The notes below the pieces were generated by a model. It saw only the letters and a program-made list of their open reading frames with translations. It was not told the origin of the DNA and made no database searches. From NCBI GenBank assembly GCA_026683435.1, contig GCA_026683435.1_4866.1: a DNA stretch of 64,000 bases. One strand, given 5' to 3'. This DNA is from a phage. How positions within the stretch are numbered: the stretch's first letter is position 1; every line of letters begins with the position of its first letter. Positions 52,090 through 58,778 of this stretch are shown one piece after another. The translations under genes and the position numbers were made by a program.

Positions 52090-52989
52090 TTAAGGCAGAA
52101 CGAGTTCAAGTACCGCAATAGAACGTATTGTATCGGTTTCGTATCTACCGTTCGACGGCGACTCTGGGTAAGGTGGACGGCTGTACCACTGATTGTAAAT
52201 GTCAGACATAGTCGCAAAGAGTGCAGATTGCGGGGCAGTAGTCGAATCGGTTGGACCGACCGGAAGGTCGTCAAAGCGCGGCAACTGCCCACTGTAGTTG
52301 TACAGGCGCGCGAAAGTGTTAAACCACTCACCGTCGAGATACAGCTCGGTCTTACCGCTTCTAACGTTAGTCGTCCAGAATCTGTAGTCGAACAAATACG
52401 GCAAACGCACCACGTATTCGTAACCGTTCTTCGCCACCGTGCGGCGTTGGTTACGTGCAGTGGCCCAGCTCGGTACAAATCCATTGCCATCCTGGCCGTA
52501 CATCAGCCCCTGGTTATAAATGAACTGCGGGCTAGCGTATATTATCGCGTTATCGGACATAAACAGAATACGGTTTTTGTAAATGAACTTATGCCAGGCA
52601 CCAACGGCGGAACTGAACATATTCACCACGAGGCTGTTCAGTTCCGTGTTAGTGAATAACTCTGTTGGCGTTACTGTTCCAAAGTATCCAGCGTGCCAGT
52701 CGCCGTATAACAGCTTCTGGGGGCCAGGCCCGGTGTCTAAAAAGAACCCTTGGGCGGTAGGGGTGTTGAAGACACGCTCACCGTCTTTAACCGCAGCTAT
52801 CCAATAACGGTAAGTGGTGTTGTTTTCCACAGCGTTGTCTTCGTACGATGTAGCGTCACCCGGAAGGGTTGCCAGAGGCGTTCCCGGTGCATTAACATCA
52901 ATGGTGGCGTTGCCCGGCGTCTTGCGATAGATTTCGATGCTATCGAGCGCCTGTGGCTTCCGTTGTGCAAAGTTTAATGTAATAGGCAT
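52090..52989 (-). CDS. X-family protein: FN3-like N-terminal segment plus GPGP domain (~300 aa)
   Basis: ORF track 52090..53025; ATG at 52987-52989 gives MPITLNF..., colinear with paralogue 55423..56346; motifs IEIYRK, TTYRYW.AAVKD.ER, DTGPGPQ, GYFGTV, C-terminal ELVLP. Confidence 0.55.
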   Translation of the reverse strand: MPITLNFAQRKPQALDSIEIYRKTPGNATIDVNAPGTPLATLPGDATSYEDNAVENNTTYRYWIAAVKDGERVFNTPTAQGFFLDTGPGPQKLLYGDWHAGYFGTVTPTELFTNTELNSLVVNMFSSAVGAWHKFIYKNRILFMSDNAIIYASPQFIYNQGLMYGQDGNGFVPSWATARNQRRTVAKNGYEYVVRLPYLFDYRFWTTNVRSGKTELYLDGEWFNTFARLYNYSGQLPRFDDLPVGPTDSTTAPQSALFATMSDIYNQWYSRPPYPESPSNGRYETDTIRSIAVLELVLP

Positions 52990-52991
52990 GA

Positions 52992-53978
52992 TTAATCCTC
53001 GATAAGCTCGATTACTGGAATCCAAACACCGCCCGCGGTCGCACCAGCGACATGTTGTATACGCTGGAGGTTATCCACGGTATCAGTGGAACCCGCCGCC
53101 GTTCCGCGCGTCAGCCCCAACTTACGGTCTGGGTCAAACTCCTGACAATGCGCCCCGCGGCCACTCACCGCCGATCCACTTCCGAATATGCTGGTGTTCG
53201 ACCACTTTATCAGGGACATCACTTTTTTCTTTTCTGGGAACCAGCTACTTATCCCATAGATGAGTCGGTTGTATTCGCTATCGGCAGTATACGGTGACGC
53301 GTCATGGAGTTTACCGTCCCACTGTGCATCGAGTGTCATGACCGGGCTTTCACTGTCGAGTGTTAAACCGCGCAGCAGGCGCATCCGATAGCGGTCACCC
53401 AACCACGTAAACTCCCCAGCCTGGTCAACGTCAGGTAAATCACCATGACCGCCTTCCGGACCAGGTCCCGCCACACCGTACAGCAAACCCGCGTTATAAA
53501 TCGCATCACGGCTATACAGCGTGTTGCCGTTCACACGAAGACCACTAAACAGATACAGAATTTTACCGTCTAGCTGGAACTTCATCAAGCCCGGCTTAAC
53601 AGTTGGGTCGTATCCAGAAAGGGCCACAAACCCTGGCGGATAATCAGCCGCGCTAGGCAATTCACCGTACGCCACATACCCGTAATACGCAAAGCGGTCA
53701 TCACCGTACTGTGGAGCCACGATGCCGATACCGCGACGGTTCTGAATTAGAATTGATTTCTGCGGACTGAACAGTGTCCGACTTCCCACTGTCACGGTGG
53801 TCATGTAGTAATACGTTGTCCCCAGTATCGCTGTTCGGTCAGTATACTCAGTTTCCCCGTTAGTGAACGTTGCCAGGGGTTCAGGTAATGCCGTACGCAC
53901 CAGAGGTTTGGTGTCGCGGTACAGCTTCACGGTCGAAGCCCCAGGGTTATTGTTCGTCCAACGAATTGTAAAAGCCAT
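52992..53978 (-). CDS. Y-family protein: FN3-like N-terminal segment plus GPGP domain (328 aa)
   Basis: Paralogue of 56356..57354 (MAFTIRWTNNNPG...KLYRD vs MSFTLRWKNPNVIP...KIYRD); GPGPEGGHGDLP; C-terminal IELIED. Confidence 0.55.
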   Translation of the reverse strand: MAFTIRWTNNNPGASTVKLYRDTKPLVRTALPEPLATFTNGETEYTDRTAILGTTYYYMTTVTVGSRTLFSPQKSILIQNRRGIGIVAPQYGDDRFAYYGYVAYGELPSAADYPPGFVALSGYDPTVKPGLMKFQLDGKILYLFSGLRVNGNTLYSRDAIYNAGLLYGVAGPGPEGGHGDLPDVDQAGEFTWLGDRYRMRLLRGLTLDSESPVMTLDAQWDGKLHDASPYTADSEYNRLIYGISSWFPEKKKVMSLIKWSNTSIFGSGSAVSGRGAHCQEFDPDRKLGLTRGTAAGSTDTVDNLQRIQHVAGATAGGVWIPVIELIED

Positions 53979-53990
53979 TGTCGTTACCTC

Positions 53991-56355: not shown

Positions 56356-57354
56356 TTACTCGACCAGTTCAAAGATAGGGTAGTAGCGCCCTTTCGTGGT
56401 GGGTGATAAATAGTTTATACGCTGAATCGTGGATACGGGTGTTCCACCGGCATTGTTAAAAATACCACGATGGAGCACACGGTCTTCCGCGGTATCGTGT
56501 TCCATACAGAGAACACCACCGCCGAAATACTGTGCCAAGGTTCCCAAAGTACCCTGTCCCAGATAAGTATAACCGATTGTTGCCCAGTTAGCCCAACGCT
56601 GTTTCTTCGGCACCTCGTTAACCATCGTGTAAAGTAAATCGTTATACTCACACGGGTTGGTTAGAGAAGCGATTTCATCATGGGTTTTCCCATTATAGTC
56701 AGCTACGAAAGGATACGCAGGAGGCTCGCTAGACGTCGTCAGGCCGCGAGGAAGACGCATAATGTACGTATCCCCTTTGTGGACTATCTTAGCGTCTTGT
56801 GGAGTGGCCGGTAGCGTTCCATGGCCGTTCTCTGGGCCAGCATCGCCCGTACCATAGACTAAACCAGCTTGATAGAGGGAAGCCCAGTCCACAGGCGTAT
56901 TCGGGAACTGCGACGTGTTAGATAGCATGTAATAGATCTTCCCGTTTCGGGTAAATTTATACAACGCCACACGATCGGTTAGTAGGTTAGGGAACATCGC
57001 CAAAAATGCAGGTGGCATTTGCGACGGAAGCCACTGTTCGTCGTAAGGAACCGCACCCATAAACCCTAAACGGTCGTCACCGTTTAGAATAGTCATTGGG
57101 CCTATCCCGCGTTTTACCTCAACAGTATATTTCTGGCTAGACGATGCCACTGTTTTACCGTTGGCGGTTACCGTCAGAAGGTAATAATAGGTTGCGCCTG
57201 GTGTGGCGGTGGTATCACGCCATTCTGTCTCGCCATTTGAGAGCGTTGCAATCGGTTCAGGCAAAGCGCCTGGTGTGATATCTTTAACATCACGGTAGAT
57301 TTTTACTACCGTAGGGATTACGTTTGGATTTTTCCAACGCAAAGTAAAAGACAT
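56356..57354 (-). CDS. Y-family protein (332 aa)
   Basis: Paralogue of 52992..53978; GDAGPENGHGTLP; C-terminal FELVE. Confidence 0.55.
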   Translation of the reverse strand: MSFTLRWKNPNVIPTVVKIYRDVKDITPGALPEPIATLSNGETEWRDTTATPGATYYYLLTVTANGKTVASSSQKYTVEVKRGIGPMTILNGDDRLGFMGAVPYDEQWLPSQMPPAFLAMFPNLLTDRVALYKFTRNGKIYYMLSNTSQFPNTPVDWASLYQAGLVYGTGDAGPENGHGTLPATPQDAKIVHKGDTYIMRLPRGLTTSSEPPAYPFVADYNGKTHDEIASLTNPCEYNDLLYTMVNEVPKKQRWANWATIGYTYLGQGTLGTLAQYFGGGVLCMEHDTAEDRVLHRGIFNNAGGTPVSTIQRINYLSPTTKGRYYPIFELVE

Positions 57355-57365
57355 GGATGATACCT

Positions 57366-58778
57366 CTACTTAAAGCCGTCCAGTTCACCGTTAAGAGACG
57401 TTAACGTTGTCTTGTCGGGGGGAGTATACATTTCAGCGGTAGCCGCAATAGGTTGGAAGTCGACTGTCTTCGGCAGCATTAATGCAGGCGGATGCAGTGC
57501 GAAACTGTTTTCTGAAGTAACAACTACCGGTTCGAAATCGGTAGTATCTGGATTACCGAGCACCAACGGCTTGAGACTAAACGTGTTTTCTGCGGACACG
57601 CTGCACGGTTGGAGGCTGTAATCTACCGCGCCGTGGATATCTTCTAAGCCCAAGGTAACCGTGGACTTATCCACCAACTCTAGCACCGGGAACCAGTAGT
57701 AGTTGCCTGCGCTCGATGATTTTTCTAAGTTTGTCCAACTGGCTCCAGACAACGTCGCCATGCGATGATAGGCGACGTTGGTCTTCAGTGTATCTTTCAA
57801 TAAACAGAACAGCGTCCAGTAACTGTTAATCGGTTTGTCCCACGTTCCATTATACAGAAAGTTGAACATCTCAAACTCACTACCTGCTAACTCAGCGGCA
57901 GTTGGGGTGCCGCTGACGTATGGGTCTTTCCCGGCACTAGGTAGACGAACACGGAAGTAAAACCTTTTGTTGTCTGCGCCTGTAAAGCTAATGATGCGTC
58001 CCTGGTTAACGGGCGTCGCCGCAGGGTATTTACCATTATCATCTGTTCCGTAAACGAGTCCGTTTGTATATAATGTATTCCAGGAGATGGAGCTAGCGAC
58101 AGGACTGATCGGGAGGTAAATAACCCTACCCTGGTAAAAGAACTTGTACCAACCTTCGGCACCAGAATGTACCGGTGGTAACGCACCGGCCGATATAGTG
58201 GCATTAAGAAGTTGAGAGTGTGTAAACAACTCTGCAATTGTGGTTGTTCCGAAATAACCCGCAATAGTGTTACCTTGCAGCAACGTTTTAGGGCCAGGTC
58301 CAGAATCGGGGTAAATTGCACCGCTCGGGACGGTATAACGTATCGTTAAGCTGCCTGTAAACGCAGGGCAATTACCTGAGATATTTAATTTCAGCGTCTG
58401 CGGCGAAGCGCTCGGTTTAGGTAGACTTGCGTCAGGTAACTGCAAATCAGAAGCAACTAATGTAAGCCCCAATGCGTCGTTTATTGCAGGTAGCGCGTCT
58501 CGTACCGTTAAGACTGTATCTTTGATAGCCACAGTCGGCACAAAATTAAATAAAGTGGCCAGGTTAATCCGGTCGTAGTACACGGTAACATTACCTTGTA
58601 CACCTGTCCCTGGATACCCGGTGAAAACAGCTTTGGTGTTACGTTGGTTTAACGTAACTGAAGTTGGGCCGCTGGTTAAAGCAGCGATAGCCGGCGTCAG
58701 CTTAACAACTAAATCAGGGTTATCCCGATTGACTTGGTCGTATACAAGCAGTGCCGACTCCTTCGAGTAAAATAGCAT
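57366..58778 (-). CDS. N-module plus GPGP-domain protein (470 aa)
   Basis: Shared N-module; DSGPGPKTLLQGNTIAGYFGTTTIAELF; C-terminus ...SLNGELDGFK. Confidence 0.55.
   Translation of the reverse strand: MLFYSKESALLVYDQVNRDNPDLVVKLTPAIAALTSGPTSVTLNQRNTKAVFTGYPGTGVQGNVTVYYDRINLATLFNFVPTVAIKDTVLTVRDALPAINDALGLTLVASDLQLPDASLPKPSASPQTLKLNISGNCPAFTGSLTIRYTVPSGAIYPDSGPGPKTLLQGNTIAGYFGTTTIAELFTHSQLLNATISAGALPPVHSGAEGWYKFFYQGRVIYLPISPVASSISWNTLYTNGLVYGTDDNGKYPAATPVNQGRIISFTGADNKRFYFRVRLPSAGKDPYVSGTPTAAELAGSEFEMFNFLYNGTWDKPINSYWTLFCLLKDTLKTNVAYHRMATLSGASWTNLEKSSSAGNYYWFPVLELVDKSTVTLGLEDIHGAVDYSLQPCSVSAENTFSLKPLVLGNPDTTDFEPVVVTSENSFALHPPALMLPKTVDFQPIAATAEMYTPPDKTTLTSLNGELDGFK

Follow-up and report, generated by a model that had tools for sequence, protein, structure and literature searches.

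Why does a jumbo phage keep several diverged copies of the same three adjacent genes, and what could their products do on the particle? The question is raised by a tandem array on contig GCA_026683435.1_4866.1 (NCBI GenBank assembly GCA_026683435.1), of which one stretch of 64,000 nucleotides, here called the window, was analysed. A first-pass annotation of this DNA had described six open reading frames (ORFs) as a duplicated cassette of three genes, and the positions and minus-strand orientation of all six were confirmed (Table 1). We refer to the members of a cassette as N, Y and X, followed by the number of the cassette. The region 52000-58800 aligns end to end at 95-97% identity with SPN3US, Proteus phage 7, the SPFM phages and others, the six ORFs being orthologues of SPN3US gp145-150 at about 97% DNA identity; judged from its sequence, the source is an SPN3US-like Salmonella jumbo phage of the genus Seoulvirus, a nucleus-forming chimallivirus (Chimalliviridae). 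In SPN3US a third N-Y-X triplet (gp151-153) is present. Our analysis revealed that the cassette is an evolutionary unit, whose three genes are duplicated, lost and horizontally replaced together and diverge in step, and we lean towards reading each cassette as a putative set of surface-displayed, modular binding proteins.

Comparison of same-position proteins by BLASTP revealed 30% identity between N1 and N2 (over 486 columns, E 1e-62), 38% between Y1 and Y2 (E 1e-60) and 41% between X1 and X2 (E 3e-65), with local-alignment scores 76-97 standard deviations above those of shuffled controls. At the DNA level the triplets were linked by three short high-scoring segment pairs only (68-74% identity, offsets of 3351-3376 bases), and from their constant offset of about 3.36 kb we concluded that the cassettes are colinear, as had been proposed. 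Intergenic gaps inside the array measure 2-13 bp. The C-terminal homology region claimed for all six proteins was likewise recovered across the families: N and X share 33-35% identity over about 160 residues (E 1e-19 to 1e-20), Y1 matches X at E 1e-12 to 1e-14 (X1 at E 7e-14) and N at E 1e-8, and Y2 is tied to the other families mainly via Y1 and Y3, and via PHROG 1062, whose matches have E values of 1e-50 to 1e-58 for every X and Y protein and of 1e-22 to 1e-33 for the N proteins. Two details of the first-pass annotation had to be narrowed. The (D/S)(T/S)GPGP motif, expected in all six, is present in N and X but not in Y (Table 1), and the ELV-type C-terminal end holds for X and Y but not for N1 and N2, where a low-confidence tail of about 95 residues extends beyond the ELV strand, which lies near residue 368.

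The order N-Y-X was invariant among the genomes compared, with one cassette in Cronobacter phage CR5, two in EarlPhillipIV and three each in phiEaH2 and SPN3US, and neighbour-joining trees of N, Y and X were largely congruent. Cassette 1 of the window is closer to the cassette 1 found in Erwinia phage phiEaH2 (45/55/54% identity for N/Y/X) than to cassette 2 of its own genome (31/39/44%). The window's cassette 2 groups with SPN3US cassette 3 (41/46/47%), and phiEaH2 cassettes 2 and 3 group with those numbered 1 and 2 in EarlPhillipIV. The grouping of the two first cassettes led to the conclusion that the duplication separating cassettes 1 and 2 predates the split of the two genera, in line with the old age that had been assigned to it. 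The duplication itself stands, but the array is longer than the two copies first described, as the remains of a third cassette lie next to them, at 51598-52078. Relative to SPN3US, a deletion of about 2.87 kb (locus bases 4834-7698 missing by blastn) has left the first 127 codons of N3, which are interrupted by an in-frame stop at codon 78 (98% identity to gp151 residues 1-127 by tblastn) and run, in a different frame, into the final ~35 codons of X3 (74% to gp153 residues 266-300). The 77-residue ORF of the N3 remnant still matches Pfam DUF7941. A second, fossil N start close by (Table 1) is also found in SPN3US, to which this stretch aligns, and remnant and fossil are probably what remains when a tandem array undergoes unequal crossing-over at its end. 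Salmonella phage JN03 has the same deletion junction as the window, followed by a cassette of the type represented by phiEaH2 cassette 3 and EarlPhillipIV cassette 2, with 55-64% identity to that type in all three genes. This foreign-type cassette beyond a shared junction shows that whole cassettes have been replaced horizontally, within one genus.

Comparison of the window with SPN3US revealed a gradient of divergence in which N changes least and X most. N1 and N2 retain about 99% amino-acid identity, with a ratio of non-synonymous to synonymous substitution rates (dN/dS) of about 0.1, followed by Y1 and Y2 (96-97%, dN/dS 0.3-0.4), X1 (93%, 0.11) and X2 (90%, 0.72), the most divergent gene between the strains. 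With dN/dS between 0.08 and 0.72, all six genes stay below 1 and all six SPN3US orthologues have been detected in virions, so that the retention of both copies claimed by the first-pass annotation was borne out. The changes in X are clustered in the last third of the shared C-terminal domain: 24 of the 30 substitutions in X2 fall within residues 200-290 and 16 of the 21 in X1 within residues 210-300, with one or two in the FN3 domain, although these intervals were chosen after the data had been seen and P values for them are indicative only. The dS of X1 against SPN3US is 0.33, compared with 0.03-0.11 for neighbouring genes, suggesting that X1 was imported by recombination. Variation driven by a diversity-generating retroelement (DGR) was also considered and is ruled against by a repeat search of the whole window, in which no DGR-type template/variable repeat pair was found; a reverse transcriptase gene was not searched for. 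Subfunctionalisation had been suggested as the reason for keeping both copies, and the data are matched at least as well by a binding surface that diversifies while copy number turns over rapidly.

Both types of N-terminus distinguished at first were recovered, although the N-module turned out to be no new element: it is the N-terminal half of the known Pfam family DUF7941 (PF25613), matched over profile positions 1-153 of 276 at E 2e-31 in N1 (109.9 bits) and 4.5e-30 in N2 (105.5 bits; gathering cut-off 27), and its fold agrees with the N-terminal domain solved in phiKZ gp127. The FN3 domain of the Y/X type is a seven-strand beta-sandwich that can be superposed on solved FN3 domains. In the Pfam search DUF7941 had no match in X or Y, and its C-terminal half was absent from N1 and N2, where the GPGP domain and a disordered tail take its place. 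A model of N1, built from 28 sequences, shows two confident domains (predicted local distance difference test score ~87) besides the tail. The low-confidence N tails contain two PKTVDFxP-like repeats and a terminal LxxxNGELDGF motif, and the NGELxGF ending is common to them and the gp160-like protein of Table 1 (hidden Markov model (HMM) of the tail, E 2e-7); it may serve as a common docking peptide. The resemblance between the tail motif (LxxxNGELxGF) and the linker motif of DUF7941 (LxGLxYP) is only suggestive: regular-expression and HMM scans gave no tie to full-length DUF7941 linkers. The length of the disordered tail differs between strains, N2 being without 26 residues present in SPN3US gp148 (indel at residue 416, window 54160-54175).

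The domain shared by all six proteins, which we call the GPGP domain, comprises about 225 residues and has no Pfam model; a profile of the six domains found it in no other ORF of the window. The lectin-fold search proposed by the first-pass annotation was carried out on predicted structures. With the two-domain model of N1 it returned many consistent C-type-lectin-like matches, at modest Z of 4.2-6.8, and with X1 the matches were dominated by FN3. We assigned the lectin-fold matches of N1 to the GPGP domain because gp127 already explains the N-terminal domain and the authors of the Goslar study found no structural matches for DUF7941 proteins, an inference from a two-domain model. On these grounds a C-type-lectin-like fold (CTLD/FGE-sulfatase/DUF1566 superfold) is probable for the GPGP domain.

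The six-domain profile was also searched against 1.84 billion cluster representatives (clusters at 50% identity), of which 1712 proteins matched at E <= 1e-3 and 1033 at E <= 1e-10. In many of them, with a length of about 300 residues, the domain begins near residue 80, in agreement with the architecture of X and Y; others contain up to eight tandem copies, or Laminin_G_3, Kelch, Big_13 or BspA-like repeats in the same protein. Two contigs that were inspected look like those of jumbo phages, one of 274,896 bp with genes on the same strand and a second (longest version ~250 kb) encoding chimallin, a divergent DNA polymerase and tubulin. Giant proteins with three and eight tandem GPGP-domain cores were seen on uncultivated jumbo-phage-like contigs (loci L003, 10001-14692, and L008, 10001-16519, respectively); they also carry Laminin_G_3 or BspA-type (DUF285) repeats, and L008 encodes chimallin and tubulin. 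A Foldseek search of BFVD recovered the FN3-GPGP architecture in virion proteins from a range of chimalliviruses, namely RSL2, Joad, RisingSun, PhiEaH1, 201phi2-1, PhiPA3, Phabio, Noxifer, EL and PS119XW. According to a comparative survey of 2021, jumbo phages lack C-type-lectin-fold (FGS) domains (PMC7824862); if the fold assignment is true, the GPGP family would have escaped sequence-based surveys of these phages.

Taken as surface-displayed binding proteins, the cassettes would be modular ligand-binding (adhesin) sets on the exterior of the particle. N would act as the conserved anchor through its DUF7941 N-terminal domain, possibly also through its tail, and would plug into a network or filaments of neighbouring DUF7941 paralogues. 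Y and especially X would be the fast-evolving, host-facing parts, with the variable C-terminal third of the lectin-like domain as the likely binding surface. The joint duplication, transfer and divergence of the genes suggest that the products of one cassette act together, probably as a hetero-oligomer.

Where on the particle such sets would sit is where published work pulls in different directions. The SPN3US proteins belong to paralog family B (gps 83, 138-154, 160/161 and 237; PMC5694885, PMC10052503), a group of paralogous virion proteins assembled by PSI-BLAST, detected by mass spectrometry and left without assigned function (PMC5694885). Replicate wild-type virions were compared with tail-less heads of a tail-tube amber mutant (PMC10052503 Table S2), and all nine SPN3US cassette proteins were detected in particles (PMC10052503 Table S2). 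Their peptide-spectrum matches (PSM) per kDa range from 3 to 13, compared with 6.6-11.7 for the 12-copy portal (PMC10052503 Table S2), and on this similarity we regard them as low-copy; gp160 of SPN3US is among the most abundant family B proteins. Among the members of one cassette PSM per kDa differs by up to 2- to 4-fold, so that the values speak neither for nor against a 1:1:1 complex. From other nucleus-forming phages a different site emerges. The model of the phiKZ atlas has the DUF7941 protein gp127 at the outer baseplate (PMC13250141; PDB 9xqd). For Goslar, filaments of gp22 were shown in vitro and a baseplate-anchored DUF7941 "fibre cloud" was proposed, some members of which bear carbohydrate-binding, hydrolase or leucine-rich repeat (LRR) ends (10.64898/2026.04.21.720040). 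SPN3US goes unmentioned in the Goslar preprint. There is thus a conflict between DUF7941-family proteins in the head, even in its interior (SPN3US group), and in baseplate filaments (phiKZ, Goslar); for the cassettes, the domains present favour the outside of the particle, and proteomics favours the head over the tail.

Several points weigh against an adhesin role. Tail-less, DNA-full heads contain gp138-155 at wild-type levels, and gp145-155 show head-to-wild-type ratios of 0.9-1.7, whereas tail proteins stay at or below 0.07 with the exception of the tentatively assigned gp38 (PMC10052503 Table S2); for gp145-150, the orthologues of the window's cassettes, the PSM ratios are 1.06-1.67 (PMC10052503 Table S2). 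For abundant members of the family the SPN3US authors tentatively suggested internal roles, with the label "Head ejection?" for gp141, gp143 and gp160 (PMC5694885) and "antler" for gp141 and gp160. By sequence the GPGP domain has no link to lectin families in Pfam, NCBIfam or the PDB sequences: Lectin_C, FGE-sulfatase and DUF1566 were missing from the Pfam and NCBIfam matches even at E <= 10, and a profile search of PDB sequences returned nothing relevant, with no tie to any known family or solved chain. The backing for a hetero-oligomer consists of co-inheritance and abundances of the same order, and individual cassettes are not essential, because the third is dispensable in this phage. A tail-fibre cluster had been our first guess and was dropped since the SPN3US orthologues stay in tail-less heads. 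SPN3US gp155 is likewise kept in tail-less heads.

A narrower form of the favoured reading, which we regard as doubtful, would make each cassette a hetero-oligomeric lectin-like adhesin displayed on the head or on head-attached DUF7941 filaments, giving swappable, multi-specificity "first-contact" recognition of the host. Were it true, the proteomics of tail-less heads and the external-filament model would no longer be at odds, and a family with the C-type-lectin fold that sequence surveys of jumbo phages had missed would come to light.

The same proteomic data allow the cassette products to be internal head proteins, that is, ejection proteins or parts of a vertex "antler" inside the capsid with no host binding. 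Family B, including gp145-154, is found at wild-type levels in tail-less heads, and also in the DNA-full heads that a protease mutant forms when grown on a suppressor, and the labels given to gp141, gp143 and gp160 point the same way. We nevertheless consider this unlikely: no member of family B is among the nine prohead-protease substrates and none shows a processed mass in Table S2, unlike proven internal proteins, and the FN3, lectin-like and Gp38-adhesin-like domains are of kinds usually seen in surface proteins. The outside position modelled for phiKZ gp127, the in vitro filaments of Goslar gp22 and the focusing of strain-level variation of X and Y on one sub-region also speak against it. 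The prohead samples of the protease-mutant study were contaminated with tails and flagella and therefore do not settle when the cassette proteins join the particle.

Less probable still is that the cassette proteins are enzymes rather than binders, degrading or modifying host surface polymers as glycosyl hydrolases or by FGE/EgtB-like catalysis. The records of Proteus phage 7 and MET_P1_082_240 label X and Y "glycosyl hydrolase", and the six GPGP domains have E, K, Y and Q residues at invariant positions. However, no glycoside hydrolase, lyase or FGE family was matched in Pfam, NCBIfam or the PDB sequences, and the hydrolase label was set aside for want of a supporting match, the structural matches being FN3 and lectin-like save for FN3-based ones to multidomain enzymes. 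The sole lyase-like signals are themselves FN3 matches (PelI, residues 50-105, E 0.2; Pel3, in the FN3 match list). Metal- or Cys-based FGE/EgtB chemistry needs invariant Cys/His-type residues, and neither Cys nor His occupies an invariant position in the six domains.

Equally improbable are structurally redundant copies without distinct roles, kept by recent recombination and drift: deletion and pseudogenisation of cassette 3 in this phage and a copy number of one to three among relatives would fit, but the cassette 1 and 2 lineages predate the split of two genera and are still intact, dN/dS is below 1 for all six genes, nine of nine SPN3US cassette proteins are produced and incorporated into particles, and paralogues just 30-41% identical are unlikely to be interchangeable.

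Set beside known systems, binding sets built from N, Y and X resemble several without coinciding with any. The six genes are directly orthologous to gp145-150 and were thus already grouped as paralogous virion proteins within SPN3US family B; the family B papers (PMC5694885, PMC10052503) treat one unexplained head-protein family, and the N-Y-X unit, the distinction between DUF7941 and GPGP domains, the FN3 and lectin-like folds and the turnover of cassettes are not found there. N1 and N2 resemble the proteins of the DUF7941 fibre cloud in their DUF7941 N-terminal domain and disordered tail, and, as in Goslar gp86, gp92 and gp161, a putative recognition domain is appended to that module. They differ from these proteins in being without the DUF7941 C-terminal domain used for head-to-tail oligomerisation in the Goslar gp22 model, X and Y lack DUF7941 altogether, and on purification the SPN3US orthologues accompany tail-less heads rather than tails. 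To the ligand-binding domains of C-type-lectin fold known from phages and bacteria (Bordetella phage Mtd, the DGR variable proteins TvpA and TaqVP, the C-terminal domain of Legionella Lcl/DUF1566 and Bdellovibrio fibre-tip domains) there is no detectable sequence relationship, and in contrast to DGR variable proteins the cassettes vary through gene duplication and cassette exchange, in a window holding no template/variable repeat pair. Multi-copy arrays of receptor-binding proteins are known from large phages, the branched tailspike sets of CBA120/Vi01-like or Rak2-like phages being examples. These arrays likewise consist of tandem paralogues in variable copy number, with a conserved N-terminal attachment module and divergent distal domains; here, however, the repeat unit has three genes with the anchor module in only one of them, the distal domains are small and probably lectin-like instead of beta-helix depolymerases, and the SPN3US orthologues are found with heads.

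Earlier publications thus already cover the genes and their paralogy, and recognition domains on DUF7941 proteins had been proposed as well. In the literature searched, the three-gene cassette as an evolutionary unit, the separation of the GPGP domain from DUF7941, its probable lectin-like fold and wide distribution, the gradient from N through Y to X and the explicit conflict between head and baseplate appear to be new.

The array is embedded in a larger block of DUF7941 genes, with gp154-like and gp155-like genes downstream (Table 1). The adhesin domain of the gp155-like protein matches Pfam PF05268 at E 6e-18 and PDB 6f45_D at E 1e-3. Directly downstream of gp155, on the minus strand, lie an endolysin-like gene with GH108 and PG_binding_3 domains (47217-47870) and a DUF1353 gene (46287-46928; PHROG "tail assembly chaperone"). 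In JN03 (locus L007, 656-4074) a PG_binding_3 protein comes after the third cassette, in place of gp154. Farther away, at 39019-40048 on the plus strand, three small tandem paralogues of 130, 134 and 68 residues consist mostly of Cys/Gly/Ser repeats (CSGGCSG...) and come right after a 412-residue coiled-coil virion protein and three giant paralog-C baseplate/fibre genes; they correspond to phrog_6085, where no function is assigned, and to DNA repeat family D2.

Table 1. Positions of the cassette genes, their remains and neighbouring features in the window.
Feature	Position	Strand	Description
N1	57366..58778	-	gp145 orthologue, 470 aa; DUF7941 N-terminal domain 1-150, GPGP domain ~152-375, disordered tail 380-470
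Y1	56356..57354	-	gp146 orthologue, 332 aa; FN3-like N-terminus, then GPGP-family domain; motif KRGIGP; PHROG 1062 E 5e-57
X1	55423..56346	-	gp147 orthologue, 307 aa; FN3 ~1-80, GPGP domain ~85-307
N2	53991..55409	-	gp148 orthologue, 472 aa; architecture as N1; Pfam DUF7941 E 4.5e-30
Y2	52992..53978	-	gp149 orthologue, 328 aa; FN3-like N-terminus and GPGP-family domain; degenerate motif RRGIGI; PHROG 1062 E 1.5e-50
X2	52090..52989	-	gp150 orthologue, 299 aa; ATG start at 52989; FN3, then GPGP domain
Third-cassette remains (N3 start and X3 end)	51598..52078	-	blastn and tblastn against SPN3US
Fossil N start MGFYSSTALELLCRLIQRDNPQHAGRIS	51508..51591	-	28 codons, stop after 30 codons; tblastn 64% identity to gp151 residues 1-28, E 4e-9
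Terminator-like GC-rich hairpin	58805..58822	-	just upstream of N1, proximal array edge; consensus scan, pattern match only
Terminator-like hairpin and T-run	51444..51469	-	after the cassette relics and before the gp154-like gene, distal array edge; consensus scan, pattern match only
Six essentially full-length DUF7941 paralogues	58828-63947		upstream of array; Pfam
gp155-like protein, 725 aa	47913-50090	-	DUF7941 N-terminal domain fused to T4/S16 Gp38-type glycine-rich adhesin domain
gp160-like protein, 182 aa	44473-45021	-	DUF7941 N-terminal domain, ends in DLSTTNGELGGF; phrog_4862

Among the candidates for phage therapy are nucleus-forming jumbo phages, those of the SPN3US type included, and the way in which they locate their hosts is poorly understood. 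About 20 family B virion proteins of SPN3US are without an assigned role, and nine of these are now placed in three-gene cassettes with a probable lectin-like domain, a member of a GPGP family that is large (> 1700 clusters at 50% identity) yet has no Pfam entry. The exchange of cassettes between genera and the focused variation of X and Y offer testable handles on host range.

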